From Minisyncoccota bacterium (GTDB lineage: Bacteria > Patescibacteriota > Minisyncoccia > Phycocordibacterales > CALRHW01), in assembly GCA_046350795.1 (NCBI GenBank), contig JAXLZT010000001.1, forward strand, positions 389,164-453,163: a stretch of 64,000 nt of DNA. Reading direction: 5' to 3'. The notes below the pieces were generated by a model. That model worked only from the letters and a program-made list of their open reading frames with translations. It did no database searches and had not been told where the DNA came from. The first letter of the stretch is position 1; the number at the start of each line of letters is the position of its first letter. This document shows, piece by piece, positions 6,764 to 56,513 of this stretch. A program made the position numbers and the translations under genes.

Positions 6764-6785
6764 ACATTTTATTTAATACCGTATC

Positions 6786-8487: not shown

Positions 8488-8547
8488 ATAAAAAAGTATA
8501 CCTACCTGAGATAATGGAAATCTAAAGAAGTTATAGAGAAACACTAG

Positions 8548-8621: not shown

Positions 8622-8651
8622 TTCGTAGAGACACATCCATTTATACCATAT

Positions 8652-18904: not shown

Positions 18905-18933
18905 TTGACTTTTTGTATATAGTATGCTATTAT
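18905..18933 (+). promoter_or_regulatory. sigma70-like promoter TTGACT-17-TATTAT
   Basis: Near-consensus -35/-10 with a 17-bp spacer, upstream of the GC-rich membrane-protein gene. SD AAAGGGGGG at 18986-18993. Confidence 0.45.
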
Positions 18934-18997
18934 TATATGGTAAACACAGTCACGGAAAGCTCATTCCCAACTTCAACTCAACAGAAAGGGGGGTCAC

Positions 18998-19645: not shown

Positions 19646-19704
19646 GGGCTCCACTCATGAGTTGGATGTAAGGTAGCGAGGTGGGTACCATAACTCCACC
19701 CAAA

Positions 19705-26916: not shown

Positions 26917-27050
26917 ATGCTTCTCCTGATGAGTTGGTGTTGTGTACTTGTTTTTAGAGCACAATGCTCTTCCTAAACTATTTTTATAATAGATTTATAT
27001 ATAAGTCAAGTATTTTATACGCATTCAAATAATGCTAATCTTAGAAATAC

Positions 27051-29469: not shown

Positions 29470-30237
29470 ATGAAAGCATGGACTCAAGTCCCCGCTGGCG
29501 ACATCAATGCCGCCAATCAACGTCTGTGGGGAGCGATCGGCGACAACGCCGAAGAGGTCGCAGCCCGCATCAACACCGACCCTGCGTTCGTGGCGAACAT
29601 CGCACGACTCATGGTCAATGGCGGTTACGAGCCGTCAACGTCACAGAAGCTCGCCCGCGAGATCATGGGCAAGAACTTCTTCGGTATCGAGGAGGCGATC
29701 AAACACTTCGGGGTTAATCCCACGAAGCAACAGCTCGCTTGCTTGGCTGAAGTTCCGTGGAGCGAGGAAGTGCTGAAGTCATGCAAGGACACGCACGTTC
29801 TCGTCGCCGTCTTTCCGCTGTCGATCCTCGACATCCGTGGACACGCCCGAAAGCAGTCCGACCGGACCCTGTTTTACTCACAGGACTGGTATGACAAGCA
29901 GGCCTTCGCCAAGGACAAGGGCGAAGTCGGCTGGCAGTTGGTCCGCAAGGAACCGATCGCCAACTCGACCTCGAAGATGTGGAACGATCAACAGGCACTC
30001 CTCTCGAAAGACGAGGAAACTCCGACTGCTCGGATCGTGGTTTACACCATGGTCGGCCACCTCCTCGCTACTGGAGAGCGTCTGTTCGAGAAGATCTACG
30101 TTCGTTGCGTCGATCTCGACTCGGACGGTGACCGCGTCAGCGTCCGCGGCTTCGATGCCGGGGGTCTCGTCGTCTACGGCTGGTGCGGCGGCGACCGCGA
30201 TTTCAGCATCGGCTTGTCGGCTGCCAGGAAGCAGTGA
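29470..30237 (+). CDS. very GC-rich hypothetical protein (255 aa)
   Basis: Long ORF in a stretch of about 60% GC. The alternative-frame ORFs are GC-content artefacts. No recognisable motif. Confidence 0.5.
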   Translation: MKAWTQVPAGDINAANQRLWGAIGDNAEEVAARINTDPAFVANIARLMVNGGYEPSTSQKLAREIMGKNFFGIEEAIKHFGVNPTKQQLACLAEVPWSEEVLKSCKDTHVLVAVFPLSILDIRGHARKQSDRTLFYSQDWYDKQAFAKDKGEVGWQLVRKEPIANSTSKMWNDQQALLSKDEETPTARIVVYTMVGHLLATGERLFEKIYVRCVDLDSDGDRVSVRGFDAGGLVVYGWCGGDRDFSIGLSAARKQ

Positions 30238-35421: not shown

Positions 35422-38400
35422 ATGTCACCACACATGCATACTGATTCGAAAGCGACACGAGAGAAAAAGTATTTCAGCAGATTTAAGAAGCCACTTGCAC
35501 CAATGCCAAATTTGGTGGAGTCTCAGATGACTTCTTTTAATTGGCTGATTGAAAAGGGTCTAAAAGAAATTTTTGATGAGTTTTCTTCAATAAAAGATTA
35601 TTCTGAGAAAAAATTTCAGTTAGATTTTACTGGTTTTGAGCTAAGTGCTCCAAAATACGATGAGTTTTATGCAAAGGACAATAAAATGTCTTATGAAGCT
35701 CCTCTTAAAGTAAAAGTACGTCTAACAAATAACATTTTAAAGACTGCAAAAGAGCAGGAAATTTTCCTAGCGGATTTTCCACTCATGACAGCTCACGGAA
35801 CCTTCATCATAAGTGGTATTGAGCGTGTTATCGTGCCTCAGCTTGCTCGATCTTTTGGAGTTTTCTTTACTTCTCAAGAAATAAAAGGACGAACTCTCTT
35901 TGGTGCAAAAATCATTCCATCTCGTGGTGCATGGATTGAGATTGAAACTGATGCAGACGGAGTTATTTATGTTCGTGTAGATAAAAAACGAAAATTCCCA
36001 GTAACATCTCTACTTAGAGTGCTTGGTGCTCATACAGACAAAGATATTTTGGCTTTGTGCAAAGACAATGAGTTGGCAAAATCATACCTAGAAAAGTCTC
36101 TTGCAAAAGATCATGCAAAGACTCTAGATGAAGCTTATGTAGAAATTTATAAAAAGCTAAGAGACGGTGATCTAGCTGCTGTAGAAAATGCAAAAGAGTT
36201 TGTTCACTCTATATTTAGTGAAGAAAGATACGATCTATCAAGAGTTGGACGATTTAGATTTAACCAAAGATTTGAAAAAGGTCTTGATGAAAAAAGTCTA
36301 TCAAAAAAGACAATCAATCTAGATGATATGAACACTATCATCTCAAACATTGTGACTCTAAATAATACAGAGGGTGCACATGAGGATGATATTGATCACC
36401 TAGGATCACGACGCGTGAGATATGTTGGTGAGCTTTTCCAGCAAAAAATCAGAATGGGTATGGCGCAGATAAAGCGAAATATCCAAAACAGAATGTCTAC
36501 AGTAGATACTGATGTTACTTTGCCTGTACAATTTATCAGTCCAAAGCCACTACAAGCTCGTATTAAAGAATTCTTTACAACAAATCAGTTGTCACAGTTT
36601 ATGCAACAGACAAATGCACTAGAAGAGCTAGAGCATTTGCGAACACTTTCTGCTCTCGGTCCTGGAGGTCTCAATAGATCTCGCGCAGGATTTGAAGTGC
36701 GTGACGTGCACACATCTCATTACGGTAGACTTTGTCCTATCCATACTCCCGAAGGTCCAAACATCGGTCTTATCTTGAGACTTGGACTTTATGCGCGTAT
36801 CAATGAGTTTGGAATGATCGAGACTCCATACGCAAAAGTAAAAAATGGAAAGGTGACTGATGAAATTGTTTACATGAATGCTTTGGAAGAAGAGCTTTAT
36901 AAAATAGCTCACGCAGCTACAGCTACAGATGAAAACGGAAAGATTTTGGTTGATAACGTAGAAGTGCGTATCAAAGGAAAGCCAGGATTAATTTCAAAAG
37001 ACCAAGTGGACTTTATAGATATTTCTACAAGTCAGGCTTTCTCTGTGGCTACTTCTATGATTCCTTTCTTGAATCACGATGATGCAAACCGCGCACTCAT
37101 GGGATCAAACATGCAAAAACAAGCTACTCCTTGTCTAATACCAGAAGCTCCTTTGGTTGCTACAGGTATAGAAGACAGAGCCGTGCTTGATACAGGAAGA
37201 CTACTTTTAGCAGAAGAGGCTGGTACTGTGACACATTCTGATGCAAAGAAAATCGTCATCAAAAATGAAAAAGGAAAGGAAAAAGAATACAAGCTAGTTA
37301 ATTTTTCTCGAACAAACGGATTTACGGCTTTTCATCAGCGCCCAAGTGTGAATGTTGGAGATAAAGTAAAGAAGGGACAAATGATCGTGGACAGCTCATC
37401 TAGTGATAGAGGGCAAATGGCTTTGGGCCAAAATATTTTGGTTGCTTTCATGTCATGGTCTGGATCAAACTACGAAGACGCTATTATCGTTTCAGAAAGG
37501 CTTGTAAAAGAAAGTAAGTTTTCATCTATTCATATAGAAGAGTTTGTAGTAAACGTACGCGATACAAAACTAGGACCTGAAGTAACTACTTGTGATATTC
37601 CAAACGTTGGTGAATCAAAACTAAAAAATCTTGCAGAAGACGGTATCATTCGAGTCGGAGCAGAGGTGCGATCTGGAGATATTCTTGTCGGAAAGATTAC
37701 TCCAAAGGGCGAAACACAACTTACTCCAGAAGAAAGATTGCTTCGATCACTTTTCGGTGAAAAAGCTCGTGATGTAAAAGATACATCAAAGAGAATGGAA
37801 GGAGGAAAGCGCGGACGTGTTATAAACGTACAAGTATTTTCTCGAGAAAAAGGTGACAAACTAGAGTCAGGAATTATAAAAAGAATTCATATTGAAGTAG
37901 CACAGCTTAGAACAGTGTCTGTTGGAGACAAACTAGCTGGACGTCACGGAAACAAGGGAGTTATTTCTAGAATCCTTCCTGAAGAAGATATGCCATACAT
38001 GGCTGACGGTACTCCTATAGATATCATTTTGACACCACTAGGTGTGCCTTCACGTATGAATCTCGGACAGATACTCGAGCTTCATTTGGGACTTGCTGCT
38101 CATACATTAAACTATCAAGCAATAGTTCCTCCTTTTACTGGTGCGACTGATAAAGAAATAAAAGAAGAATTAAAGAAGGCTGGATTTGCAGAAAATGGAA
38201 AGATGCAACTCTTTGATGGACGCACAGGTGTGCCTTTTGATCAGGAAATTGCTGTCGGATACATGTACATCATGAAGCTTCATCACATGGTAGAGGACAA
38301 GATCCACATGCGTTCTATCGGACCATACTCTCTTATCACACAACAGCCACTTGGAGGAAAAGCTCAAGGTGGAGGACAGAGATTTGGAGAAATGGAAGTG

Positions 38401-38637
38401 TGGGCACTTCTCGGACACGGTTCTGCGCACACTTTGCGTGAAATGCTTACAGTAAAATCAGACGATATCTTGGGAAGATCTGCAGCCTTTGATTCTATCG
38501 TGAAGGGTGAAAAAGTTGGTGAACCAAATACCCCAGCATCTTTCAACGTTCTCTTGAACAATCTACGAGGTATAGGACTTGATATAGATTTGAGACAAAC
38601 AAAAAGGTCGGAGCAAGAAGAGGGAGAAAACGAATAA
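35422..38637 (+). CDS. rpoB: RNA polymerase beta subunit
   Basis: Full-length RpoB with conserved rifampicin-cluster and catalytic motifs. Confidence 0.95.
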   Translation: MSPHMHTDSKATREKKYFSRFKKPLAPMPNLVESQMTSFNWLIEKGLKEIFDEFSSIKDYSEKKFQLDFTGFELSAPKYDEFYAKDNKMSYEAPLKVKVRLTNNILKTAKEQEIFLADFPLMTAHGTFIISGIERVIVPQLARSFGVFFTSQEIKGRTLFGAKIIPSRGAWIEIETDADGVIYVRVDKKRKFPVTSLLRVLGAHTDKDILALCKDNELAKSYLEKSLAKDHAKTLDEAYVEIYKKLRDGDLAAVENAKEFVHSIFSEERYDLSRVGRFRFNQRFEKGLDEKSLSKKTINLDDMNTIISNIVTLNNTEGAHEDDIDHLGSRRVRYVGELFQQKIRMGMAQIKRNIQNRMSTVDTDVTLPVQFISPKPLQARIKEFFTTNQLSQFMQQTNALEELEHLRTLSALGPGGLNRSRAGFEVRDVHTSHYGRLCPIHTPEGPNIGLILRLGLYARINEFGMIETPYAKVKNGKVTDEIVYMNALEEELYKIAHAATATDENGKILVDNVEVRIKGKPGLISKDQVDFIDISTSQAFSVATSMIPFLNHDDANRALMGSNMQKQATPCLIPEAPLVATGIEDRAVLDTGRLLLAEEAGTVTHSDAKKIVIKNEKGKEKEYKLVNFSRTNGFTAFHQRPSVNVGDKVKKGQMIVDSSSSDRGQMALGQNILVAFMSWSGSNYEDAIIVSERLVKESKFSSIHIEEFVVNVRDTKLGPEVTTCDIPNVGESKLKNLAEDGIIRVGAEVRSGDILVGKITPKGETQLTPEERLLRSLFGEKARDVKDTSKRMEGGKRGRVINVQVFSREKGDKLESGIIKRIHIEVAQLRTVSVGDKLAGRHGNKGVISRILPEEDMPYMADGTPIDIILTPLGVPSRMNLGQILELHLGLAAHTLNYQAIVPPFTGATDKEIKEELKKAGFAENGKMQLFDGRTGVPFDQEIAVGYMYIMKLHHMVEDKIHMRSIGPYSLITQQPLGGKAQGGGQRFGEMEVWALLGHGSAHTLREMLTVKSDDILGRSAAFDSIVKGEKVGEPNTPASFNVLLNNLRGIGLDIDLRQTKRSEQEEGENE

Positions 38638-38663: not shown

Positions 38664-41600
38664 ATGAATACAAAATATACAACAAAATCAAAAGGACAAG
38701 GAACACAAGGTGATTTTGACATGATTACACTAAAGCTTGCTTCGCCTGAAAAAATTAAAGAATGGTCTTTTGGTGAAGTTACAAAGCCAGAAACTATAAA
38801 TTATCGAACACAAAGAAGTGAGAGAAACGGTCTTTTCGATGAAAAGATTTTCGGTCCAGATAAAGATTATGAATGTTACTGTGGAAAGTATCGAGGTATC
38901 AGATATAAGGGTGTAGTCTGTGAAAAGTGTGGAGTCGAAATCACACGATCTATCGTGCGACGAGAAAGAATGGGTCACATAGAATTGGCTACTCCAGTCT
39001 CTCACATTTGGTTTTTGAGAAGTATGCCTTCTCGAATCAGTATGCTTTTGGGTATTCCTACTTCTGATTTGGAGAAAGTAATTTACTTTGCTGGATACAT
39101 TGTTACAAGTGTTTCAGAGCCAGAAAGATTGAGAATTCTAAAAGATCTGGATTCAGAATTTAAGGCAAAAATAAAGTCTGTAAATGATGAAAAGACAAAA
39201 GAGGCGATAAAAGAGATGCTCGTAAACGCAAAGAGAGACATCGAAGGTATTCAAGCTGGACGTGTTCTTGATGAAGTCGAGTATCACAATTTCTCAGTAA
39301 AATACGGAACTCTTTTTGAGGCTGGAATAGGCGCAGAAGCTATTTACAAAATTTTCAAAGATTTAAATCTTGAGAATCTAGAGAAAACTCTCGTAGCTGA
39401 TTTGGAAAAAGCTGGAGCAATAGAAGTAGACAAAATAAATAAGAGACTTTCTCTTATTCGTTCAATGATTAAGACTGGCGTACGACCAGAGTGGATGTTT
39501 TTGACACGTATTCCTGTGATTCCACCAGCTCTTCGACCAATGGTTCCGCTTGATGGGGGACGATACGCTACTTCAGATGTAAACGATTTGTACCGACGTG
39601 TTATAAACAGAAACAATCGTCTAAAAAAGCTAAAAGAAATTTTTGCGCCAGAAGTTATCTTAAGAAACGAAAAAAGAATTTTACAAGAAGCGGTAGACTC
39701 ACTCATCGACAATTCTATTCGTCATGGAAATTCTCCTTCTTCTGCTGTAAATCAATCTCAACGTCGCCCACTAAAATCTCTTTCTGACAACTTAAAAGGT
39801 AAAAGAGGTTTGTTCCGTGCAAATCTTCTTGGAAAACGTGTTGATTATTCAGGACGTTCTGTGATCGTTGTGGGTCCTGAACTTAAGCTCAATCAGTGTG
39901 GACTACCAAAACATATGGCTCTTGAGTTGTTTAAGCCGTTTGTGATTTCTCAACTTATTAAGCGCGAACTTGCATACAATATCCGTGGAGCAAGCCGACT
40001 TATCGAAGACGGTATACCTGAAGTATGGGCTATCCTAGAAGAAGTAATCAAAGATAAATACGTGCTTCTAAATCGTGCTCCTACTTTGCATCGTCTTGGT
40101 ATACAAGCTTTCAAGCCTATCCTTATCGAAGGAAATGCTATTCAGGTTCATCCTCTAGTATGTACAGCTTTCAACGCTGATTTCGACGGAGACCAAATGG
40201 CTGTTCACGTTCCTCTATCCAAAGAAGCTCAAGCGGAAGCAAGAGAAATAATGGCTTCTGACAAAAATATTTTGAAGCCAGGAAGTGGAGATCCTATTAT
40301 TTCAGGAAAGATGCTTGATATCGTACTTGGTTGTTATTGGATGACTAAGGTTGTAGATGGTAAAAAGGGTGAAGGAAAATATTTTGAAGATCCAGCAAGC
40401 GCTATCAGAGCTTTTGATTATGGAGAAGTAGATTTCCGAGCAAAAATAAAGGTTCTTCCTACCGAAGAAGTAAAATACAAAGTTTTTGAAGGAAAAGTTT
40501 TTGAAACTTCTGTTGGACGTTTGCTTTTCAACAGTGTTTTGCCAAGCGATTATCACTACATGAACGGTGAAATAAATCGAAAGAAAATGTCTGAGATAGT
40601 GGACGATTTGATTGAGAAATACGGAATCGAAAATGTTCCTTCTATCATGGACAACATTAAAGCTTTCGGATTTAAGTATGCTACTTATTCTGGAGTAACT
40701 TGGGGTATTGATGATGTCCTTGTTCCATCAGCAAAAGATAACGTAATAAAAGTTGCGAAAGAAAAGTCTGATCAAATAATGGATCAATATAACTCAGGAT
40801 TTATTTCAGAAGAAGAAAGACTTAGAAAAAATATTGAAATTTGGCACGGCGCAAAGAATGAAGTTGAAAAACTTATTCCAGAGGCTTTGCAAAAGCACGG
40901 CTCTGTATATGACATGGTAAATTCAGGAGCCCGAGGTTCTATCGGAAACATTACTCAGATGGTGGGTATGAAAGGTCTTATCCAAAATACTGCTGGAGAG
41001 ACTATCGAATTCCCAATTCTTTCATGTTCAAAAGAAGGTCTTTCACCTCTTGAATATTTCATTACGACTCACGGTTCTAGAAAAGGTCTTACTGATACAG
41101 CTCTTAACACAGCGAAAGCGGGATACCTTACACGCCGACTCTTTGATGTGGCTCAAGACGCTATTATTACAGAAGAAGATTGTGGAACAAAAGAAGGAAT
41201 CAAACTTAGAAAAGAAAATGCTTCTGGAATCGAAATTCCTCTTTCACGAAATTGTAAAGGACGTTTCCTTGCTGAAGATGTTGTAAACTCAAAAGGTGAA
41301 GTTTTGTTTAAGAAAGGTGATTTCTTAACAAAAGAAAATGCTTTGATTATAGACAAAGAAGGTATACAGGAAGTTGTTGTAAGATCTCCTTTGGTTTGTA
41401 AAACTCACACTGGTGTATGCGTGAAGTGTTATGGTGCTGATCTAGGAAAGCACAAGATTATTGATCTTGGTGAAGCTGTAGGTACTGTTGCTGCTCAAGC
41501 TATCGGTGAGCCTGGAACACAGCTTACAATGCGTACATTCCATGCCGGAGGTACAGCGTCTGTCGGTGGAGACATTACTCAGGGTCTACCTCGTGTTGAA

Positions 41601-42332
41601 GAAGTGTTTGAAAAACGAAAGCCAAAAAATCCAGCTGTCGTAAGTCATGTAGAAGGAGTCATTACTGCTGTAGAAAATTCTGGCGCGGACAAAAAGATTG
41701 TTGTTCTTCCAGAAATCTCAGATAAATCAAAGATAAAGACAAAGGGTGAAGTAGAATATCCAGTAAGTCCACAGCGTATGATATTGGTAAAAGTGGGAGA
41801 TAAGGTACAAAAGGGTGATCTTCTTACTGATGGTTCTGCTGATATTGATGAGTTGTTTAAGTATGCTGGAAAAGAAAAAGCAGAAAACTACATCATTCGA
41901 GAAATTAGCAAGCTATACGAGCTACAAGGAGAAGCTGTGTCTCGAAAGCATATTGAAGTCATCGTGCGACAAATGTTTGCTCGTCGAAAGATAAAAGATA
42001 AGGGAGATACAGGTCTATCAGTTGGAGATGTGGTAGAAATGTCAGAACTTTCAGCTGAAAATAGAAAAGCACGTGAAGCTGGAAAAGAAGAAGCAAAATC
42101 AGAACCAGTAGTAATGGGTATCACAGAAGTATCTCTTTCAAGAAAGAGTTTCCTTTCAGCTGCGTCATTCCAGCATACGACTCGAGTGCTTATCAATGGT
42201 TCAATCAGAGGAAACACAGACAAGCTTATAGGACTCAAGGAGAATGTCATTATTGGAAGATTGATTCCTGCAGGTACTGGCTTTGAAGGAAGTCCAAAGA
42301 ATCAGTTGATAAAAGAAATAAAGCAGGATTAA
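38664..42332 (+). CDS. rpoC: RNA polymerase beta' subunit
   Basis: Zn finger CX2CX12CX2C and NADFDGD catalytic loop. Confidence 0.95.
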   Translation: MNTKYTTKSKGQGTQGDFDMITLKLASPEKIKEWSFGEVTKPETINYRTQRSERNGLFDEKIFGPDKDYECYCGKYRGIRYKGVVCEKCGVEITRSIVRRERMGHIELATPVSHIWFLRSMPSRISMLLGIPTSDLEKVIYFAGYIVTSVSEPERLRILKDLDSEFKAKIKSVNDEKTKEAIKEMLVNAKRDIEGIQAGRVLDEVEYHNFSVKYGTLFEAGIGAEAIYKIFKDLNLENLEKTLVADLEKAGAIEVDKINKRLSLIRSMIKTGVRPEWMFLTRIPVIPPALRPMVPLDGGRYATSDVNDLYRRVINRNNRLKKLKEIFAPEVILRNEKRILQEAVDSLIDNSIRHGNSPSSAVNQSQRRPLKSLSDNLKGKRGLFRANLLGKRVDYSGRSVIVVGPELKLNQCGLPKHMALELFKPFVISQLIKRELAYNIRGASRLIEDGIPEVWAILEEVIKDKYVLLNRAPTLHRLGIQAFKPILIEGNAIQVHPLVCTAFNADFDGDQMAVHVPLSKEAQAEAREIMASDKNILKPGSGDPIISGKMLDIVLGCYWMTKVVDGKKGEGKYFEDPASAIRAFDYGEVDFRAKIKVLPTEEVKYKVFEGKVFETSVGRLLFNSVLPSDYHYMNGEINRKKMSEIVDDLIEKYGIENVPSIMDNIKAFGFKYATYSGVTWGIDDVLVPSAKDNVIKVAKEKSDQIMDQYNSGFISEEERLRKNIEIWHGAKNEVEKLIPEALQKHGSVYDMVNSGARGSIGNITQMVGMKGLIQNTAGETIEFPILSCSKEGLSPLEYFITTHGSRKGLTDTALNTAKAGYLTRRLFDVAQDAIITEEDCGTKEGIKLRKENASGIEIPLSRNCKGRFLAEDVVNSKGEVLFKKGDFLTKENALIIDKEGIQEVVVRSPLVCKTHTGVCVKCYGADLGKHKIIDLGEAVGTVAAQAIGEPGTQLTMRTFHAGGTASVGGDITQGLPRVEEVFEKRKPKNPAVVSHVEGVITAVENSGADKKIVVLPEISDKSKIKTKGEVEYPVSPQRMILVKVGDKVQKGDLLTDGSADIDELFKYAGKEKAENYIIREISKLYELQGEAVSRKHIEVIVRQMFARRKIKDKGDTGLSVGDVVEMSELSAENRKAREAGKEEAKSEPVVMGITEVSLSRKSFLSAASFQHTTRVLINGSIRGNTDKLIGLKENVIIGRLIPAGTGFEGSPKNQLIKEIKQD

Positions 42333-42373: not shown

Positions 42374-44110
42374 ATGTCATCCTCAGTAGACCTTATAAAA
42401 GAAAAGCTCGATATTGCCGACATTGTTGGATCGTATATTAAGCTTGAAAAAGCTGGCTCAAATTTTAAAGGGAAATGTCCTTTTCACAACGAAAAGACTC
42501 CTTCCTTTTTCATCTCGCCTGATAGGGGTACTTACTATTGTTTTGGTTGTGGAGCAAAAGGAGATATTTTTACTTTTGTGCAAGAGTTTGAAGGACTCGA
42601 TTTTCGGGGCGCTCTAAAAAATCTAGCACTACGCGCTGGCATAGAGCTAGAACAAGAAAATCCTACGGTGCGTAGCGAAAAAGATAGGCTGTACTCCGCT
42701 CTCGAGCAAGCCTCATTCTTTTTCCAAAAAAATCTGGCTGATAATACGGAAGCAAAAAAATATTTGCTCGGTCGCGGTCTATCAGAAGAGACAATAAAAG
42801 AATGGAGTATAGGATACGCACCACTTGCTTGGCAGGAGTTACATGATTTTTTGGTTGCTAAAGGTTTTACAAAAAGTGAACTTGAAAAAGTGGGTCTCAT
42901 TAAAAAAAGTGAAAAACGAGCGGGTGAGTATTATGATGTGTTTCGTGGTCGTATAGTTTTTCCTATTTTTGATGTGGGTGGTAGAGTCATTGCTTTTTCC
43001 GGCAGAATACTGGTTGATGACGGCAAATCTCCAAAATACCTAAACACACCAGAAACGATTCTCTTTAACAAATCAGAGACTCTGTATGGCCTGCACAAAG
43101 CAAAAGTAGACATTCGTCGCAAGGACTATTCTATACTTGTTGAGGGACAAATGGATCTCGTGATGTCGCATCAAGCTGGCTTTGGCAATACTATAGCCTC
43201 TTCTGGTACCGCTTTTACTTCTGAGCATTTGGGTAAGCTCAAGCGTCTGTCCAATCGTATCGTGATGGCTTTTGATGCCGATGGTGCTGGTTTTACCGCT
43301 GCCAACAAAAGTGCACAATTAGCGCTTTCTCTTGGTATGGAGGTAAAGGTGGCTCTTTTGCCAAAAGGTAGCGATCCAGCGGAGCTTATAAAAAAAGATA
43401 TTGATGCCTGGAAAGATGTTTTAAAAAACACCATGCATATTATTGATTTTTATATGCAATCTTTACTAAGTCAAAATCTCGATGCGCGAAAATTAACAAA
43501 AGAAATACAAACAAAAGTGTTGCCGTATATTAACATGCTTGAAAGTAGCATGGAGCGAGCACATTTTGTTTCAAAGATTGCTGAACGTGTCGGTATAAAA
43601 GAAGATGCATTGTGGGAGGATTTAAAAAAACTTCCTGTGAATGCAAACGTTGTCTCAAGTATGAATAGTGTTTCGACACCAACACAAGAGACACACCGAC
43701 AGTCCAGTCCGTCTTTTAGGAAAAATTCGATTGAAAAAAAGATTTTAGGAATAAAAATGTGGCAAGAGAGTCTGTCAGAGCCAAAAATAAAATTAGACGA
43801 GCTCATGACTAGACTTGAGGCCACAGTGGGCAAGGATACAGTCGCTTCATTGCTTTCAGAGCTTGAGCCAAATAAAAACGAGCTAATCTTTGAGGTAGAG
43901 GCGTATTATGATAATAGAGACGGCATTGAAGATGAGATTAGTGAACTTTTTAACAATCTCGAAGAAGAACGTCTTAAAGAAGAATTTGTGCGGACGATGT
44001 CGGAGCTAGGCAAAGCAGAGAGAGAAAAAGATTTGAGCAAAGTAGAAACACTTCTCGCAAAATGTACTGAAATATCAAAAAAGATCGCCCTGCTTCCAAA
44101 GAAAAAATAA
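42374..44110 (+). CDS. dnaG: DNA primase
   Basis: Zn-ribbon CPFHNEKTPSF...CFGCG and TOPRIM domain. Confidence 0.9.
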   Translation: MSSSVDLIKEKLDIADIVGSYIKLEKAGSNFKGKCPFHNEKTPSFFISPDRGTYYCFGCGAKGDIFTFVQEFEGLDFRGALKNLALRAGIELEQENPTVRSEKDRLYSALEQASFFFQKNLADNTEAKKYLLGRGLSEETIKEWSIGYAPLAWQELHDFLVAKGFTKSELEKVGLIKKSEKRAGEYYDVFRGRIVFPIFDVGGRVIAFSGRILVDDGKSPKYLNTPETILFNKSETLYGLHKAKVDIRRKDYSILVEGQMDLVMSHQAGFGNTIASSGTAFTSEHLGKLKRLSNRIVMAFDADGAGFTAANKSAQLALSLGMEVKVALLPKGSDPAELIKKDIDAWKDVLKNTMHIIDFYMQSLLSQNLDARKLTKEIQTKVLPYINMLESSMERAHFVSKIAERVGIKEDALWEDLKKLPVNANVVSSMNSVSTPTQETHRQSSPSFRKNSIEKKILGIKMWQESLSEPKIKLDELMTRLEATVGKDTVASLLSELEPNKNELIFEVEAYYDNRDGIEDEISELFNNLEEERLKEEFVRTMSELGKAEREKDLSKVETLLAKCTEISKKIALLPKKK

Positions 44111-44148: not shown

Positions 44149-45393
44149 ATGAAAAAAAATAAAAAAACAATTTCAAAAAAGAAGTCTAAAAAAATTACAA
44201 AAAAATCTGTAAAGAAAGCAAAGCCAGTTAAAGCAAAAAAGGCTAAAAAAGAAAAAGCTGTAAAGAAATCTACAAAAAAAGTCGAATCAAAAGTATCTAC
44301 ATCCAAGAAAAATCAGAAACTAGAAAATGGTGTGAAAACACTTATTTCAAAGGGAAAGGAGCGTGGATTTATTACCTACGACGAAATCCTAAAAGAATTC
44401 CCAACTATCGAGGACGATATACTTTTCCTCGAGGATCTATACCAGCAACTCATGGTGGCTGGCATCGACATACTAGAAGGAGGAGGATTGCTTGATTCGA
44501 AAGATCCAGCAGATGATCCAGCTATAAAAAAATATACATACAACAAGGGCGAGGGCTCACCATATGATTCTATTCAAATGTATTTGAAAGAAATCGGCCA
44601 GTATCCACTCATTTCTGGGGGTCAGGAAAAAGATTTGGCAAAGCGCATTGAAAAAGGGGATCAAGAAGCAAAAAATTTGCTCGCTCGTTCCAATCTCCGC
44701 CTCGTGGTGTCTATTGCAAAAAAATATGTAGGACGAAGTCCGGATCTCACACTTCTTGATTTGATTCAGGAGGGCAATCTCGGTCTCTTTAAAGCTGTAG
44801 ATAAATTTGATTGGACAAAGGGATATAAGTTTTCTACATATGCTACATGGTGGATCAGACAGGCCATCACTCGTGCTCTAGCAGACCAATCTCGTACTAT
44901 TCGTGTACCGGTGCACATGGTGGAAACTATTGCAAAATACAAGCAGGTGGTGCGCCGACTTTCTCAAGATCTTGGCCGTGATCCTTTACCAGAAGAAGTG
45001 GCAATGGAAATGAATCTAGATGTAGATAAAGTTTATAATATTGAAAAAATAGATCAGAGCACCGTGTCTCTTGAAAGTCCGGTGGGGGATGATGGTGACG
45101 ATGGCAAATCAACTCTGGGTGACTTTATCGCTGACGACAAAATCCTTTCTCCAGATCAGGATTCTTCACGACGTATTATTTCAGATCAAGTAAAAGAAAT
45201 TCTAAACGACCTTCCACCAAAAGAGCGAAAAATTCTAGAAATGCGTCACGGGCTCGTGGACGGCATTACTCATACACTTGAGGAAGTAGGTAAAGAGTTT
45301 GGTGTGACTCGTGAGCGTATTCGACAGATTGAAGCAAAGGCGCATGAAAAAATCCGTCAGCATGAAAATATCAATCGATTGAGGAATTATTAA
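44149..45393 (+). CDS. rpoD: primary sigma factor with Lys-rich N-terminal extension
   Basis: Regions 1.2-4 ([27 protein letters not shown], region 4 HTH). Follows dnaG as usual. Confidence 0.9.
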
Positions 45394-45398
45394 CTAGC

Positions 45399-45498
45399 AA
45401 CAAAAAAAGCTTTCTCAGGGTACGGACTTTTTGAAGCTTAAAAAGTCCTGAAACGCTCGGCTCGACAGCCTCGCGACCCCCTTCGAAAGCTTTTTTGT
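45399..45498 (+). terminator. nested inverted repeats downstream of rpoD
   Basis: Outer AACAAAAAAAGCTTTC / GAAAGCTTTTTTGTT and inner GGACTTTTT-GAAGCTT-AAAAAGTCC hairpin. Confidence 0.4.
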
Positions 45499-45540
45499 TG
45501 CTTACACGAGTCTTTTCTCAATATGGTTTTTGCTTTGATA

Positions 45541-45601
45541 TTTTCAAAAGAAAACGCCGCACCGAGAGTGTGCCCGACGGGCGTCCTCTCTAGTGCGGCG
45601 T
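45541..45601 (-). terminator. hairpin ACGCCGCAC...GTGCGGCGT followed (minus strand) by TTTTCTTTTG
   Basis: 9-bp GC stem with a 30-nt loop. Confidence 0.45.
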
Positions 45602-45633
45602 GTATGCCGACATGGTTTTTGTGCCAGCTTCCC

Positions 45634-46194
45634 TTATCTGAGAACCAGCACTGTCATCGTGGTGTTCAGGACGAAGCATCCGCATGGGATGAGACGCTCC
45701 TCGATTGTCCACTTCTTTGCTCCATAGCAGGAAAGGACGCAAGAGAAAGCGACACCAGCCCATAGCCACCAACTCTCTGAGTTCGGTTTCAGCCACGCAT
45801 CATACATGGCTGGAAACGCAGCGATCGTCATGGCGGTCATGCAAGCGACGATTGCCAACTTGGGGCCAGATCTCCACCAGCAGATCACCGCGACTGCCAT
45901 CCCGATGGCAGAGATCATTTCCACCAGACCCCAATGCCACGTTCCTTTCCCGAGAAGGATGATCGTGACGAGGAGAGCTCCGAGTGTGAACCCAGCAGGA
46001 AGCCAGGGTCGCTTGTTGCCGGCTGCAACGCAGCCAACAAGGATCAGGGCATCAAGCACTGTCCACATGATCCAGCTCGCTGTATTCTGGGGTAAGTCGT
46101 GTACCATCAGATAGACAGCGAAGGCGACGATCACGATCGTCGAGATCAATCCTCCAATCAGACCGATTCTCTTTTTCAAGAGTTCGTTTTGCAT
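45634..46194 (-). CDS. GC-rich 6-TM membrane protein (186 aa), paralog of 18998..19645
   Basis: Shares the ASWI, GAL(L/I)V and SESWWLW motifs with the 215-aa island protein. SD GAAAGG. Inverted repeat GGCCGCAT...ATGCGGCC upstream at 46244-46286. Confidence 0.5.
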   Translation of the reverse strand: MQNELLKKRIGLIGGLISTIVIVAFAVYLMVHDLPQNTASWIMWTVLDALILVGCVAAGNKRPWLPAGFTLGALLVTIILLGKGTWHWGLVEMISAIGMAVAVICWWRSGPKLAIVACMTAMTIAAFPAMYDAWLKPNSESWWLWAGVAFSCVLSCYGAKKWTIEERLIPCGCFVLNTTMTVLVLR

Positions 46195-46550
46195 CGTTAG
46201 CCTTTCGGTTTGTTGTGATTCTTAGACTGCTGCCCACGATATTGGCCGCATTTTTCAAGACCCGGAAGATCCTAAAAGATGCGGCCAACGAAAACCATAT
46301 CAAGGAACTATTACGCGAAATAATAGCATACAAAAATAAAAAAGTCAATAAAAAAGAAGGCCACCCCCAAAAGGGTGGCGCTGAGGGTTGTTATTGACTT
46401 GTCGAATGGTGTTTCGCCCGGCGAGTCAATGCTGAGAGACATGCTGTACGCGAACTCGCTCTGTCAGAGAGGTTGGTGAAGTTGACTTTTTTCTACAATG
46501 TCTTAGTCTGTTTGAGGACATCACCACATACAAAAGAAAGGAGGTGATAA

Positions 46551-47468
46551 ATGATCCGTAAAAATGGAAGAGGTGGTGGCACTCAGAGCGATACGTCCGA
46601 ACTGCTTCGATTTTTTTCGGGCAAGATTGAGCAATACCCCATTCTTACAAGAGAGGAGGAGGTGGAGCTTTTCAAGCGTATCGAAGCTGGTGACGTACAG
46701 GCAAGAGAAGACCTGGTGTATTCAAACGTACGCATCGTCATTAAGACGGCCTTCGTGTACTGGAATATATCTAGAAAACGTTATGGGCCAATCCATTTCG
46801 CTCTAGATGATCTGGTCCAGGTGGGGTTCACCGGTCTCTATAGGGCCGTTGAGAAGTTTGACTGGCGACGCGGGAACAAGTTTTCCACATACGTCAGTTG
46901 GTGGATTCGTCAGGCGATTTCGAGGCTGATATGCAATACGGGTAACACAATCAGGTTGCCTGTGAATTTGCAGGCACGTATCTCGAAATATCGGAAGACT
47001 GTCATCCGCCTTACCAAGGAACTAGGCCGTACTCCTCATCTAGTAGAGATAGCTGGGAGGATGAAGCTGAGGGTGGATTGTGTCGAAGAACTGATAGCGA
47101 TTACTCAGATTCAACCCATGTCACTCGACGAGCCGTCTTCACCAGAATCTCCAGACAGCACGCTTTTATCTGTTATACCGACCAAGGGTGTTCAGCCATG
47201 GAGAGATGTTCATAGGCAGAATATTCTGGCGTTTAAACAGGAGAAGATCGAGAGGGTGTTGAAATCTCTCACTTCTCAAGAACGTGATGTCATCACATTG
47301 CGCTTTGGTCTTGATGGGCAGGGTGAGCGCACTCTTGGGGAGGTTGGTAAGTTGTACGGTGTTACTCGAGAGCGGATTAGACAGATAGAGGGCAAGGCAC
47401 TTCTCAAACTTCGCGAACGCCACGAAGAAGATCTCGCCGAACTTCTTTTCGAAATGGGCGACAAATGA
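46551..47468 (+). CDS. second sigma70-family sigma factor (group 2-like, no region 1.1), moderately GC-rich
   Basis: Regions 1.2/2 (QYPILTREEEVELFKRIEAGD, FSTYVSWWIRQAISRLI), 3 and 4 ([19 protein letters not shown]). Perfect SD AAAGGAGGTGA. Upstream inverted repeat ATTGACT-N24-AGTCAAT at 46393-46430. Confidence 0.7.
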   Translation: MIRKNGRGGGTQSDTSELLRFFSGKIEQYPILTREEEVELFKRIEAGDVQAREDLVYSNVRIVIKTAFVYWNISRKRYGPIHFALDDLVQVGFTGLYRAVEKFDWRRGNKFSTYVSWWIRQAISRLICNTGNTIRLPVNLQARISKYRKTVIRLTKELGRTPHLVEIAGRMKLRVDCVEELIAITQIQPMSLDEPSSPESPDSTLLSVIPTKGVQPWRDVHRQNILAFKQEKIERVLKSLTSQERDVITLRFGLDGQGERTLGEVGKLYGVTRERIRQIEGKALLKLRERHEEDLAELLFEMGDK

Positions 47469-47469
47469 T

Positions 47470-47512
47470 GAACCATGCGTGAGATTTTTGCGCGTGGTTC
47501 TTTCTTTTCTAA
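47470..47512 (+). terminator. hairpin GAACCATGCG...CGCGTGGTTC followed by TTTCTTTTCT
   Basis: 10-bp stem with island-style tail. Confidence 0.5.
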
Positions 47513-47538
47513 AATAATCACATGATATAATTGCCTCA

Positions 47539-50481
47539 ATGACCTCAAAAAAATTTCAAGAATTATATAAAAGCCTCAACCCCCGCCAAAGAGAGGCTGT
47601 AGATACTATAGAAGGCCCTGTGATGGTCATTGCCGGCCCTGGAACGGGCAAAACGTCTATTCTAACGCTCCGTATTGCAAATATCTTAAAGGAGACTCAA
47701 ACACCCGCTTCGGGCATTTTGGCTATTACTTATACAGAAGCTGGAGTGAAGGCGATGAGAAAAAAACTGCGTGAGATTATTGGTAGCCGATCTGATGATA
47801 TTCGCATCCATACTTTTCATAGCTTTGCTGTGTCTGTCATTCGTGATTTTCCAGATCATTTTCCACATCTTTTTGAAACAGAGCCTGCGACTGATATAGA
47901 AGCAAGAAATTTTATAGAAAAAATTTTACAGAAAAAAGAATTTGCAGATTTACGACCTTTTGGAAAACCTGATATGTATATTGATCCCATCCTTCGTACT
48001 ATCAGTGAAGCCAAAAAAGAAGCGTATACGCCAGAGATGATAAAATCATTTGCCGTAGAAATGATTGCGCAGATACAAAACGATGAAACTCAGATTTCCA
48101 GTCGAGGAAAAACAAAAGGTGAATTGAAGGCTGACGCCAAGAAAAAAATCGAAAAATGTGAAAAAACAATTCTTTTGGCGGATGTGTATGATTTTTATGA
48201 ACAGGCAAAAAAAGAAGCTGAGAAAATTGATTTTGACGATATGATTTTTGAGCTTCAGACAGCGCTCAAGCGTGACGAGCTTCTTTTGCGACTACTTCAA
48301 GAGCAATATTTATATCTGCTCATTGACGAACATCAGGATACTAATGATTCTCAAAATGATCTGATATTGATGATTGCTGACTTTTTTGACACGCCAAACG
48401 TTTTTATCGTTGGTGATGAAAAACAAGCTATTTATCGTTTTCAAGGTGCGTCTGTAGAAAATTTTCTTAAATTTAAAAATATTTGGCGTGACGTCAAACT
48501 CATTCAGCTTGATACAAATTATCGCTCACAACAAAAAATTCTTGATGCCGGATTTCGTCTTATAGAAAATAATTACGAAGAAGGAGAGCACGCCGAGCTT
48601 CGTCTAGAGCTTGCCTCTGGTAAAAAAGATGCTCAGGAGCGCCCTGTAACTATTGTGAAAACTGATAGTATTACCGACTCAGAGGGATATATGGCAAAAA
48701 AGATACAGGAAATACTCACAGATGATTCTTCTGAGATTGCTCTCATTGTGCGTACAAATGCGGCGGTTGGTCGCCTAAAAAGGCTTTGTGAGGGTTATGG
48801 TATTAGAGCGGCAAGTGTGAGAAATGTTGGAATATTTGAACATCCTGCTGGTGGATTATTTTTTGATCTTTTATCTGCGATAAAAAATCCACTCGACAAT
48901 GAGGCGCTTTCTAGGACTGTTGTAGCCGGGTTGTGGGGTGTTTCTTTTGAAGAGCAATTATCTCTTTTAAAAGAAATCCGATCATCTGGAGGTGTAAAAA
49001 AAGGAGCGTTGGCAGAGAAATTAAAAACACTGCGAGATAGTATGCTATCCGGTGATCCTCTCGGTTTTCTATTTGAAGTTGCAGAAACATCTGGATATAT
49101 TGAAAAAATTTCTGTTGAGCCGGAGCGAATAGAGATTTGGCGTGGAATTATTGATTTTGCAGAAACTATTTTAAGAAGTAGGGATAATTTTTCTGACACA
49201 GTCATCCTTATTGATGAGCTTATTTCATACAGAAACCTGTCGGAGCAAAAGCAGGTAAAAGTCTCCTCGGGTGATTCGGATGCGCGCGTAAAAATCATGA
49301 CTGCGCACGGTAGCAAGGGTCTTGAATTTGATTATGTTTTTATTCCTTACGCCACAGAGTCATTTTGGATGAAAAAATCACATTCTTCTTTTTTTGCACT
49401 TCCGTTTGATAAGCCTTCAAAAGATGATGATGTAAAAGATTCTCGAAGACTTTTTTATGTAGCTTTGACGCGCGCCAAAAAACACGTAGAAATTTTAACT
49501 CACAATGAGTTGGAAAACGGTGAAATGGAATTAACACTTCGTTTTATAGATGAGCTTGGAGAAGAAAATATCGAGATAGAAAATATTGGAAAAATGGAGT
49601 TTGTGCCGTATCAGCCACGAAAAACCGGAGAAGAAAAGTTTAGAGCGAGCTATCTTGAGGCAACAAAAAGAGTACTTACAGAAAACGGACTATCTGTGAC
49701 AGCTCTAAATCATTTTTTGACATGTCCCAATAGCTTTTTGTATAAAAGTGTTCTAAAAATCCCAGAGCTTCCGACAGTGGGTTCTGAAAAAGGTAATGCT
49801 ATGCACAAGGCTCTAGCATATGTATTTAGATCTGGGCCGGAATTTAGAAAAGGTCCGCTAGAACAGATTGAAAAGACGATCAAAGAAAAAGCGTTTGAAT
49901 ATTTAGATGATTCTTTTTTGAGAAAGTTTGAAATAGAGGCTTTGAAGCAAACGCTCGAGAATGAGATTCCAAATATAGTTGCGGGACTAAAAGACCTTTT
50001 TACCACTGGTGGAAAGATTAATGTTGAAAAATCTGTAGCGGGGGAAATCGAGGTTGAGATTTCGGGTGGTGCAAAAATCAAGATATTGATACATGGAAAT
50101 CTTGATTTAGTAATATTTGGCGAAAATACATTAGAGGTGTTTGATTTCAAGACAAAAAAGGGTATGACCCAAGCTGAAATAAAGGGGGAGACTAAAAATT
50201 CAGATGGCGGATATTTTAGACAGCTCGTATTTTACACCTTACTTCTTTCTCAAAATCCTGACTCACAAGGAAAGGCAATCAATTCTTCTCTCATATTTTT
50301 GACACCAGACGATCAAGGAAGAATACGTCGAGAATCACTGCCGGTCTCAGCAGAGGATTTGGTCAGTATTAAAGAAAATATAGCCACACTCACAGAAAGT
50401 GTTTTTTCTGGTGCAATTTTGGATAAGGTTTGTGAAGAAGAAAAGTGCCAGTGGTGTGCTTTGAGAAAGATTTCTAGTTAG
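47539..50481 (+). CDS. UvrD/PcrA-family helicase fused to C-terminal RecB-family PD-(D/E)xK nuclease with Cys cluster (AddA/AdnB-like)
   Basis: Walker A AGPGTGKTS plus UvrD helicase motifs. C-terminal nuclease motif GNLDLVIF...EVFDFKTKKG and a Cys cluster near the C-terminus (...VCEEEKCQWCAL). Confidence 0.8.
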   Translation: MTSKKFQELYKSLNPRQREAVDTIEGPVMVIAGPGTGKTSILTLRIANILKETQTPASGILAITYTEAGVKAMRKKLREIIGSRSDDIRIHTFHSFAVSVIRDFPDHFPHLFETEPATDIEARNFIEKILQKKEFADLRPFGKPDMYIDPILRTISEAKKEAYTPEMIKSFAVEMIAQIQNDETQISSRGKTKGELKADAKKKIEKCEKTILLADVYDFYEQAKKEAEKIDFDDMIFELQTALKRDELLLRLLQEQYLYLLIDEHQDTNDSQNDLILMIADFFDTPNVFIVGDEKQAIYRFQGASVENFLKFKNIWRDVKLIQLDTNYRSQQKILDAGFRLIENNYEEGEHAELRLELASGKKDAQERPVTIVKTDSITDSEGYMAKKIQEILTDDSSEIALIVRTNAAVGRLKRLCEGYGIRAASVRNVGIFEHPAGGLFFDLLSAIKNPLDNEALSRTVVAGLWGVSFEEQLSLLKEIRSSGGVKKGALAEKLKTLRDSMLSGDPLGFLFEVAETSGYIEKISVEPERIEIWRGIIDFAETILRSRDNFSDTVILIDELISYRNLSEQKQVKVSSGDSDARVKIMTAHGSKGLEFDYVFIPYATESFWMKKSHSSFFALPFDKPSKDDDVKDSRRLFYVALTRAKKHVEILTHNELENGEMELTLRFIDELGEENIEIENIGKMEFVPYQPRKTGEEKFRASYLEATKRVLTENGLSVTALNHFLTCPNSFLYKSVLKIPELPTVGSEKGNAMHKALAYVFRSGPEFRKGPLEQIEKTIKEKAFEYLDDSFLRKFEIEALKQTLENEIPNIVAGLKDLFTTGGKINVEKSVAGEIEVEISGGAKIKILIHGNLDLVIFGENTLEVFDFKTKKGMTQAEIKGETKNSDGGYFRQLVFYTLLLSQNPDSQGKAINSSLIFLTPDDQGRIRRESLPVSAEDLVSIKENIATLTESVFSGAILDKVCEEEKCQWCALRKISS

Positions 50482-52255: not shown

Positions 52256-52759
52256 ATGACGAAGACGTCATTAAAGTTTCGTGTCCGAACTCACGGGATT
52301 GTGGTTGATGTTCGACAAGACAGCAAGTGGGTCAATGCAATTTCTGTGATGGCCGTCATGCGTCCCGGCTCTTTTGATGTGAGCCGGGTAGGCGGACTCT
52401 ATCCTCCCGTTGGTAATGGGATGATCAAGAAGAGCCTCACTCTGCTGAATTTCCCAGAAGGTGACGGTGGTTTGGACAGTGCTGTTGTTTGGGCCAAGGA
52501 TAATGGCCTGAAAACAGTCGAACCACGTTCACTTTTTGCCATCAAGACGGCACACCCCGGACTTCACAAGAAGATCGGTCAGGGTGGGGTAGTTCTCGTG
52601 GAGACTGTCGGATGTACGCTGAATCATACTGGCTTCCCTGACAAACGCCATCTGTGTTGCGTTGTCTTGGGGGACGGTGTGCCCGCTGTCGGACTGTTTC
52701 CGGTCAACCAATTCAACGGCTTTGGTAGCCACGACACCTGGTTTGTGTTTAGTGACTAG
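52256..52759 (+). CDS. GC-rich hypothetical protein (167 aa)
   Basis: ORF flanked by its own consensus promoter and terminator. No recognisable motif. Confidence 0.5.
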   Translation: MTKTSLKFRVRTHGIVVDVRQDSKWVNAISVMAVMRPGSFDVSRVGGLYPPVGNGMIKKSLTLLNFPEGDGGLDSAVVWAKDNGLKTVEPRSLFAIKTAHPGLHKKIGQGGVVLVETVGCTLNHTGFPDKRHLCCVVLGDGVPAVGLFPVNQFNGFGSHDTWFVFSD

Positions 52760-55967: not shown

Positions 55968-56018
55968 GTTGGAGACGTTCTTAATGTTCGACCAATGTCC
56001 ATCAACTCAGGAGGTGTC

Positions 56019-56513
56019 ATGTCCACGACGACAGAACCAACTATCGCCTGTCTGGAGGACAGGAAGAGTCTCATCGAGGCGGCCGTGAAGAGACTCATCG
56101 AAGACTGCGAAGGTCAGCTGCTGGTGAAGAAGGGAGAACGGGCGAATATCACCATCACGCTCGGGGTCGGACTATCCGATGAACGACCCCACCATTCGTT
56201 CAAGGTGGATCTCAAGGTGCAAAGCAAGTCTGACAGGATGCGCACCCTGGGTCCTGTCACGACTGTAGAGGAGTGGTCGCGACTGAGCAATCTCAGCTTC
56301 CGGTCTCCAGCCATCGCCGAGTTCATCCAAGCTCTCAAGCCAGTTGCTGGCAAGTCAAGATCTGCTCGCGCCGGAGATTTCTTCCGGTATGGCAACGAGA
56401 TTCACAGCATCAATCAGAAGCTTCGTGACAGCGACATTCGAATGAGGGTGAGAGGAACATATGGGGGCATGTTCCAAGATCGCCACTTCACTCTCGTGAG
56501 AGTGGGGCATTGA
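56019..56513 (+). CDS. GC-rich hypothetical protein (164 aa), candidate toxin-like partner of the upstream ncRNA
   Basis: SD AGGAGGTG sits 5 nt before the ATG at 56019 (the alternative upstream ATG at 55995 lacks an SD). No recognisable motif. Confidence 0.5.
   Translation: MSTTTEPTIACLEDRKSLIEAAVKRLIEDCEGQLLVKKGERANITITLGVGLSDERPHHSFKVDLKVQSKSDRMRTLGPVTTVEEWSRLSNLSFRSPAIAEFIQALKPVAGKSRSARAGDFFRYGNEIHSINQKLRDSDIRMRVRGTYGGMFQDRHFTLVRVGH

Follow-up and report, generated by a model that had tools for sequence, protein, structure and literature searches.

The subject of this analysis is sig2, a second sigma-70-family gene, and the variable interval that it occupies in the window, the whole stretch of 64,000 nucleotides (nt) analysed here. 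The window has a GC content of 40% and comes from a low-GC contig of a Candidatus Paceibacterota metagenome-assembled genome (MAG), which belongs to the Candidate Phyla Radiation (CPR). Its rpoB (35422–38637), rpoC (38664–42332) and dnaG (42374–44110) genes are followed by rpoD (44149–45393, plus strand; identified with Pfam and NCBIfam), which encodes the housekeeping sigma factor of 414 amino acids (aa) with its region 1.1. Next come a GC-rich open reading frame (ORF) for a 186-aa membrane protein (45634–46194, minus strand), sig2 itself (46551–47468, plus strand, 305 aa; ORF call and Pfam) and a gene for a 980-aa UvrD-helicase/PD-(D/E)XK nuclease (47539–50481). This order agrees with the sequence-only reading, an earlier annotation made from the letters alone, which had set a 305-aa sigma gene between a GC-rich membrane-protein cassette and the helicase-nuclease gene. 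rpoD and sig2 are the only sigma genes in the window. The exact sig2 protein is NCBI MFO0718848.1, encoded on a 562-kb contig, and identical copies are present on independent assemblies.

That sig2 encodes a sigma factor is plain. The Pfam matches to regions 1.2, 2, 3 and 4 all lie above their cut-offs (28.2, 53.1, 29.1 and 60.5 bits, respectively). Sigma70_r1_1 has no Pfam match in sig2; the adjoining RpoD does match r1.1. The domain content reported earlier, regions 1.2, 2, 3 and 4 with the motif FSTYVSWWIRQAISRLI and without region 1.1, is thus borne out. Residues 19–290 align to solved SigA and RpoD chains with E values down to 6e-54. The AlphaFold2 model (mean predicted local distance difference test score, pLDDT, of 80) has three helical domains, confidently modelled as sigma2 (residues 17–131), sigma3 (138–185) and sigma4 (217–301), and a disordered linker 3.2. 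Identity to the neighbouring host RpoD is 41%. The gene also stands out in composition, as had been noticed from the letters: its GC is 0.485 and its GC at third codon positions (GC3) is 0.51, compared with a mean GC3 of 0.304 (sd 0.045) in a background of 45 ORFs, i.e., a z of about 4.6.

Residues are named here by the E. coli sigma-70 numbers of the equivalent positions. The melting and recognition motifs, FSTY..WWIRQ and TRERIRQIE, are retained in sig2. The second of these is region 4.2, which is of the primary-sigma type and identical to that of RpoD. In region 2.3/2.4 (FSTYVSWWIRQAISR), the aromatic melting residues and the equivalents of Q437 and R441 are kept, and T440 is replaced by S. 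The contacts to the extended −10 element are changed, H455 to N and E458 to A. The known variants of the sig2 allele are C128R and N139H, where residue 139 is the H455 equivalent; this position is H in the variants P0242 and P0244. sig2 also departs from many positions that are near-invariant among sigmas. Taken together, the sequence describes what should be an intact alternative sigma of the sigma-70 family with a group-2-like architecture.

sig2 has transcription and translation signals of its own. A putative promoter and 5′ untranslated region (UTR) form a module at 46482–46550 (plus strand), in which TTGACTTTTTT (a −35 element and a T tract) is followed by a 16-nt spacer and TAGTCT, a −10-like hexamer. 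The UTR ends in AAAGGAGGTGATAA and then ATG, which is the perfect Shine–Dalgarno (SD) sequence of the sequence-only reading; the gene's own terminator, also named there, is present as well. A terminator scan places this intrinsic terminator, a 14-bp stem and then a T run, at 47470–47510 (plus strand). The hairpin occupies 47470–47500 and is followed by TTTCTTTTCT; it is identical in two relatives, L087 and L089. Homology to L087 starts precisely at 46482, and we take the sigma unit to extend from 46482 to about 47510. A short UCACC...GGUGA stem, able to base-pair with the SD over its 3′ half, is predicted for the leaders of the window gene (46512–46550) and of the sigA gene of relative L090, and its sequence also occurs in the leader of relative L093. 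As an SD-sequestering element the stem was rejected, for the leaders fold no better than shuffled sequences (z of −2.1 to +0.26), and it remains of interest as a lead only.

A separate insertion/deletion (indel) of 1,088 bp, at 45394–46481, lies between rpoD and the sigma unit. It is missing from L087, an NCBI MAG, and from L088, a Logan contig. These are independent assemblies whose flanks are about 99% identical to the window and whose sigma allele is that of the window, with one amino-acid difference. In both, only ACA stands between the rpoD stop codon and TTGACTTTTTTCTACAATGTCTTAGTCT, with the putative TTGACTTTTTT promoter of sig2. Besides the membrane-protein ORF, the indel contains a structured, Y-shaped element of 107 nt directly after the rpoD stop codon (45396–45502), with a fold of minimum free energy −46.5 kcal/mol (z −5.6). 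This element has no match in Rfam, and its 18-nt arm occurs once in the window; the Rfam scan of the region returned nothing except tRNAs elsewhere in the window. The membrane cassette has a promoter, TTGACT-17-TATTAT (46348–46320, minus strand), and a terminator near 45551–45600, and the terminator scan places a further hairpin terminator at 46360–46379 (minus strand). The same cassette is found in L090 (9674–10382), where it sits elsewhere, after hisS, with 72.7% DNA identity and with homology that begins precisely at the −35 element. A further inverted repeat (46242–46288), in the 5′ UTR of the cassette, is within the stretch that aligns to L090. The membrane cassette is mobile, and it is a cassette separate from that of sig2 rather than a part of one shared unit.

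The inverted repeat ATTGACT-N24-AGTCAAT, at 46393–46430, had been included in the earlier outline of the sigma feature, which was started at 46393. The repeat is there, but as a repeat it is unremarkable: ATTGACT occurs 12 times in the window, with 12.9 occurrences expected, and we estimate that several 7-nt inverted repeats within 40 nt would be expected per 2.4 kb. Moreover, the unit starts at 46482, and the repeat falls within the indel that is absent from L087 and L088. It was thus rejected as an operator of sig2.

The interval between rpoD and the helicase gene, hereafter the slot, is variable well beyond this strain, in about 160 related genomes. We compared 80 species-representative genomes with a related RpoD (70–94% identity). 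Most of them keep the order rpoC-dnaG-rpoD-gap-helicase-dsbA-bacA-rnh-hisS; in a minority the helicase or the downstream flank was not detected. At its shortest the gap measures 11 bp and at its longest 4.3 kb; the contents vary by genome, and it is often GC-richer than the genome. In the window, collinearity with L004, L087, L090 and L093 stops at 45392–45393, so that the rpoD stop codon is the left boundary of the slot. It resumes 16–26 nt upstream of the helicase start (at 47513 with L004 and at 47523 with L090), where the right boundary is formed by the conserved helicase promoter region (47513–47538, plus strand), including GATATAAT.

To survey second sigmas, a sigma hidden Markov model (HMM) was applied to every ORF in 173 loci, each with 6–10 kb of flank around rpoD. 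Besides fragments of the window's own lineage, a second sigma occurs in four settings only: the window lineage with L087 and L088 (305 aa), L004 (287 aa), L090–092, which have two in tandem (292 aa and 304 aa), and L093 (300 aa). In every setting the gene lies, as sig2 does, between the rpoD stop codon and the helicase promoter on the same strand. The carriers are the closest relatives of the window, with RpoD 93–100% identical to its own. More distant relatives, about 160 in number (RpoD 69–85%), are all without a second sigma in the 6–10 kb around rpoD, and a metagenome scan with RpoD gave 80 loci, none with RpoD identity above 84% and none with a second sigma. Three short RpoD-like matches were rejected as slot sigmas, P0024 since it follows dnaG like a primary sigma, and P0029 and P0066 on account of their unrelated contexts. 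As judged from these loci, slot sigmas are restricted to one narrow Paceibacteria subclade and always lie between rpoD and the helicase-nuclease gene. The absence of sig2 from some 160 relatives is consistent with its being dispensable.

The sequence-only reading had asked whether relatives encode only one sigma-70, and had named same-locus orthologues of host-like composition as the finding that would speak against acquisition. The distant relatives indeed have no second sigma near rpoD; the closest ones carry one. Positional homologues are present in L004, L090–092 and L093, and host-like composition is found for L004 (GC3 0.32) only. Because the homologues lie in the closest relatives, the locus would be specific to the subclade, with turnover of its alleles, rather than the product of a single foreign acquisition.

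The slot sigmas form five lineages. They are very different from one another, with pairwise protein identities of 27–42%, in genomes whose housekeeping proteins are 77–99% identical. All five nevertheless share three derived characters: F or M at the N409 equivalent, loss of the E458 equivalent, and a loop of 15–21 residues between regions 2.1 and 2.2, where other sigmas have 12–14 residues. sig2 itself has F at the N409 equivalent, A at the E458 equivalent and a 20-residue loop. The combination is absent from all of the roughly 390 other top-scoring sigmas, and the five top viral sigma matches retain the primary-type motifs. The ORFs are intact in all alleles, that is, in five lineages and at least seven assemblies.

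Sequence searches place nothing close to sig2 outside the slot. An exhaustive HMMER scan of 1.84 billion representative proteins found no homologue with more than 49% identity, and the best two full-length single-stretch matches, P0251 (219 bits) and P0252 (215 bits), are both located in the same slot. A word-indexed search of 5.8 billion clusters returned, besides sig2's own cluster, only primary sigmas from many phyla, none of them more than 47% identical. Word-indexed searches with sig2, the L004 sigma and a five-sequence family profile likewise returned only generic primary sigmas beyond their own clusters; the family-profile search missed P0251 and P0252 because its list of 8,000 candidates was filled by RpoDs. 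A phylogeny against the host RpoD was the check proposed at the outset, and its outcome is twofold. In a separate earlier tree, in which terminal branches are long, sig2 joins the Paceibacteria RpoD clade in 0 of 100 bootstraps. In a neighbour-joining tree, the five slot sigmas form one group with 51% bootstrap support.

Among the slot sigmas it is the control regions that are conserved, not the coding sequences. A common promoter/5′ UTR module, TTGACTTT, then TA(G/A)TCT, then CACC...AAAGAAAGGAGGTGATA-ATG, occurs in four of the five lineages. With the modules of L090 sigA, L093 and L090 sigB, the module of sig2 shares 75%, 78% and 52% identity, respectively, where the proteins of sigA and L093 are 40–42% identical to sig2. 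A TAnTCT −10-like hexamer is found in all alleles, including that of L004. Since the module is conserved while region 2.4 varies among alleles, it is suggested that the slot-sigma promoter is read by the conserved RpoD and not by the variable sigma itself. In the L087, L090, L093 and L004 sequences, the stretch from rpoD to the slot sigma shows no evident terminator hairpin. It follows that a slot sigma, sig2 included, probably has two sources of transcription, read-through from rpoB-rpoC-dnaG-rpoD and a weak promoter belonging to the gene itself. In the window strain, rpoD and sig2 are parted by the insertion of the membrane cassette.

The mismatch between sigma and genome is seen in each pairwise comparison with the window. 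L090 has flanking DNA 92% identical, HisS 99.3% and helicase 96%, with a sigma of 40% identity. For L093 the flanking DNA is about 82% and RpoD 97% identical, and the sigma 42%; for L004 the values are 78%, 94% and 32%. The converse is seen in L087. There, 46482–47786 differs from the window at 1 position in 1,305 nt, and the end of rpoD and the helicase gene from 47787 on differ by 7–8%. Within sig2, the single difference is non-synonymous and there are no synonymous ones, so that the synonymous divergence (pS) is 0, compared with 0.124 in rpoD, 0.097 in the helicase gene and about 0.03 in other genes. Even if the lowest background pS is assumed, the probability that sig2 shows no synonymous change does not exceed 0.005. 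L089 provides a second case: its sig2 and membrane gene are 98.7% and 99.5% identical to those of the window at the DNA level, and its sig2 is joined to the other type of helicase, which is 73% identical to the window's in DNA and closest to that of L004. The switch of helicase type is about 40 nt into the helicase ORF.

Divergent sigmas on similar genomes, together with the same allele on differing backgrounds, argue for allele exchange by recombination. The locus thus appears to be a pre-existing one at which alleles are exchanged by homologous recombination, a history distinct from both vertical divergence and a single foreign insertion. We think it rather probable that sig2 is one allele of a fast-diverging family of slot sigmas, particular to this subclade, that is exchanged in this way. 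The earlier claim that an extra sigma had been acquired holds in that the gene moves horizontally, as the pS values of sig2 and rpoD indicate, but not in the form of a single foreign island. In the proposed course of events, the sig2 allele would have entered at a locus already existing in the subclade. The left crossover point would lie in the 3′ end of rpoD or in the shared promoter/UTR module, and the right one in the promoter and 5′ end of the helicase gene. The product is predicted to bind the host core RNA polymerase, to read TTGACA-like −35 elements through its RpoD-like region 4.2, and to read −10 elements through the conserved region 2.3/2.4. Primary sigmas use the extended −10 TG motif through E458; none of the five lineages retains the equivalent residue, so initiation would presumably proceed without the use of that motif.

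Several points weigh against this account. The bootstrap value of 51% may reflect long-branch attraction, and the family rests mainly on position and characters. The L004 allele is without the shared promoter module (41% identity) and without raised GC, and the raised GC3 of the other four lineages is not explained by simple residence in a low-GC genome. Only five lineages are available, and the metagenome assemblies that supply them are few. The L089 sequence, a Logan contig of 2.7 kb with its junction in a conserved stretch, may be an assembly chimera, and we treat it as supporting evidence only. The within-allele ratio of non-synonymous to synonymous divergence (pN/pS) of 0.30, obtained against L089, rests on 6 synonymous and 6 non-synonymous changes. 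Finally, the core-binding region 2.2 of sig2 is changed (E407V, N409F), so that normal core binding is not guaranteed.

The helicase-nuclease gene on the right of the slot also occurs as two deeply divergent types, with 34–36% protein identity. The window and L090 have one type and L004, L093 and L089 the other, independent of genome relatedness. This suggests that the helicase-nuclease gene too may undergo allele replacement.

Why the alleles diverge is a further matter. A tentative proposal, to which we would give about one chance in a few, is that the slot holds a system of sigma cassettes shaped by diversifying or frequency-dependent selection, in which several ancient allelic lineages persist in more than one species and are swapped, driven by sigma-targeting conflict or by strain-specific expression. 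Swaps may take place via the conserved promoter and terminator flanks. The driver may be, for example, a phage anti-sigma or sigma-hijacking protein, to which the extra sigma would be a resistant back-up or a decoy; alternatively, each allele may set a strain-specific expression programme for host interaction. Helicase-nucleases are a classic target class of phage inhibitors. If the proposal is true, the slot and the two-type, swapped helicase-nuclease would make up a small conflict hotspot inside a core transcription operon.

An account in line with the sequence-only reading, a single recent acquisition of a GC-rich island with its membrane gene from a distant donor or phage, now looks improbable. 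It would explain a GC3 of 0.51 on a background of 0.30, the lack of any homologue above 49% identity in the 1.84 billion representative proteins, the position of sig2 outside the Paceibacteria RpoD clade and the zero synonymous divergence of sig2 between strains. sig2 also matches the phage family phrog_351 at 212 bits, but this match is to the generic sigma core. The closest relatives hold positional homologues with common derived characters, and the promoter module recurs in four of five lineages. The membrane cassette is an independent indel. The best matches among phages and viral contigs are 42–44% identical and retain the primary-sigma characters, and the slot contains no integrase, repeat or phage genes. 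A phage origin of sig2 was rejected for the same reasons, no viral match being closer than cellular RpoDs and no viral sigma having the family characters.

The regulon idea of the same reading concerns the GC-rich single-gene cassettes that dot this low-GC genome, with GC of 0.50–0.59 and GC3 of up to 0.76. On the minus strand they lie at 4194–4904, 5116–6300, 7343–7678, 23650–24375, 26509–26964 and 45634–46194, the last being the membrane cassette, and on the plus strand at 18998–19645, 29470–30237, 52256–52759 and 55995–56513. A GC-hairpin terminator is present in most, and a TTGAC(T/C)-type promoter in several. Pfam gives no match above cut-off for any of them (one sub-threshold match is to DUF4149), and there was no match in the eight scanned against PHROGs or the five scanned against PADLOC. 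In close relatives they are at other sites or missing, and the analysis shows them to be independent mobile units.

It had been suggested that the second sigma could redirect transcription to these cassettes; in the strong form of the idea, sig2 is the dedicated sigma of the scattered GC-rich ORFan cassettes and diverts RNA polymerase to them. We consider this quite unlikely, even if several cassette promoters are near-consensus and sig2, like the cassettes, belongs to the variable accessory DNA. All seven TTGACTTTT sites of the window adjoin GC-rich cassettes (one is sig2's own promoter), where 2.5 are expected by chance; across 2.2 Mb of related loci, however, only 4 of 51 such sites precede GC-rich DNA. 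Region 4.2 is the same in sig2 and RpoD, so the −35 element cannot tell the two apart. Host operons use the same TTGAC(A/T)-N16-18-TAnnnT promoters, e.g., TTGACA-17-TATACT at rpoB, and the membrane cassette has the same promoter in L090, the sigma alleles of which differ. GC-rich, promoter-bearing slot genes occur in many relatives without a second sigma within 10 kb of rpoD. Elsewhere in the window, TAnTCT hexamers of the sig2 type show no enrichment. The pattern TTGAC-N17-19-TANTCT was tried as a promoter class specific to sig2 and rejected, as 2 sites were found with 0.5 expected, one of them sig2's own, and no regulon emerged.

A decaying tandem duplicate of rpoD, one that lost region 1.1 and drifts under relaxed constraint without a distinct role, would fit the position immediately downstream of rpoD on the same strand, the RpoD-like domain order with 41% identity, the many changes at near-invariant sigma positions and the long terminal branches, but it is the least probable reading, since sig2 never joins the Paceibacteria RpoD clade, the ORFs are intact throughout, both the FSTY..WWIRQ and TRERIRQIE motifs are kept, pN/pS is not near 1, the SD, promoter and terminator are conserved, and sigma similarity does not scale with genome divergence. 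An ancient duplication is a possible origin of the slot-sigma family as a whole.

Among known systems, group 2 sigmas (RpoS, cyanobacterial SigB–E, actinobacterial SigB and HrdA–D) resemble sig2 in architecture. Like them, it has regions 1.2–4 without region 1.1 in about 300 aa, has a primary-like region 4.2 and mostly primary-like region 2.3/2.4, and coexists with RpoD; its best-scoring models are of the RpoD, RpoS and SigB types. The scores are nonetheless far below the curated cut-offs for RpoS (198 against 379 bits), SigB (187 against 464) and cyanobacterial RpoD/SigA (208 against 385), and also far below those of the cyanobacterial SigC and SigD models. Unlike group 2 sigmas, the slot sigmas lose the E458 equivalent, vary at H455, have F or M at N409 and have the longer region 2.1–2.2 loop. 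sig2 differs from them further in being hypervariable among close relatives and replaced as alleles; to our knowledge, such hypervariability and replacement have not been described for group 2 sigmas. As for primary RpoD/SigA proteins, sig2 fails NF006666 (225 against 572 bits) and RpoD_Cterm (198 against 354) and has no region 1.1. Group 3 models fail as well: RpoH (112 against 241–323 bits), FliA (93 against 190) and SigBFG (93 against 234).

The RpoD-like sigmas of phages (phrog_351, cyanophage rpoD, a Klebsiella phage sigma) are like sig2 in having a sigma-70 core on mobile DNA of distinct composition. They are unlike it in that the best phage and viral-contig matches, at 42–44%, are no closer than cellular RpoDs and retain primary-type residues, and in that the slot has no phage gene context. 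MzaA of the MZA anti-phage system (NF041931/PDLC02203) matches sig2 at 210 bits in NCBIfam, where the cut-off is 800 bits, and at 130 bits in PADLOC, and it too is found in a variable genomic setting. However, the match covers only the generic, C-terminal sigma core (about positions 430–705 of the profile; positions 475–705 in NCBIfam), and the N-terminal part of some 430 residues of this protein of about 700 aa is missing from sig2. Apart from similarity of the helicase to generic GajB/UvrD-type helicases, the PADLOC scan found no MZA partners or other defence components among the neighbouring genes scanned. Membership in a defence system was thus rejected, the MzaA overlap being generic and the helicase–GajB match being through the generic UvrD domain.

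Capsule and O-antigen loci and the specificity genes of type I restriction systems are hypervariable and are exchanged through conserved flanks. The slot is like them in being a fixed site between conserved genes, with divergent alleles in close relatives, alleles that mismatch the genome background and breakpoints in the flanks. The slot's cargo, unlike theirs, is a transcription initiation factor and not a surface or restriction determinant.

CPR bacteria have minimal regulatory repertoires. Among components of the core machinery of transcription, a sigma gene that acts as a hypervariable, recombining locus would be unusual. Should its diversification be adaptive, this would indicate either that RNA polymerase is at the centre of a hitherto unrecognised conflict in these symbionts, or that regulation differs by strain. 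Full-text literature searches found no paper on additional or varying sigma factors in CPR bacteria; on this subject PMC6744442 mentions only that CPR genomes lack sigma-54. The picture of a foreign island gives way to that of a clade-restricted, fast-diverging sigma locus, and the slot, short and well-bounded, could be tracked in population metagenomes.

Elsewhere in the window, the tRNA genes Leu-tag, Lys-ctt, Leu-taa and Cys-gca alternate with a 3.5-kb block of GC-rich cassettes at 4194–8640, which may be an insertion hotspot beside tRNA genes. At 18905–19654, the longest ORF (234 aa, minus strand) is odd in composition and probably spurious. A strong plus-strand promoter, TTGACTTTTTGTATATAGTATGCTATTAT, much like that of the membrane cassette, precedes the 215-aa membrane ORF at 18998–19645; paralogy of this ORF with the 186-aa membrane ORF was rejected as not significant (E = 0.011). 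A second variable slot appears to lie at 52256–52759 (plus strand), where a 167-aa GC-rich ORF lies between bacA and an RNase-H-like gene. It is missing in L004 and L093, in which the flanking genes adjoin, and the equivalent position in L090 has a 186-aa ORF of similar size and without a Pfam match. In L087 and L088 the 167-aa ORF is present.

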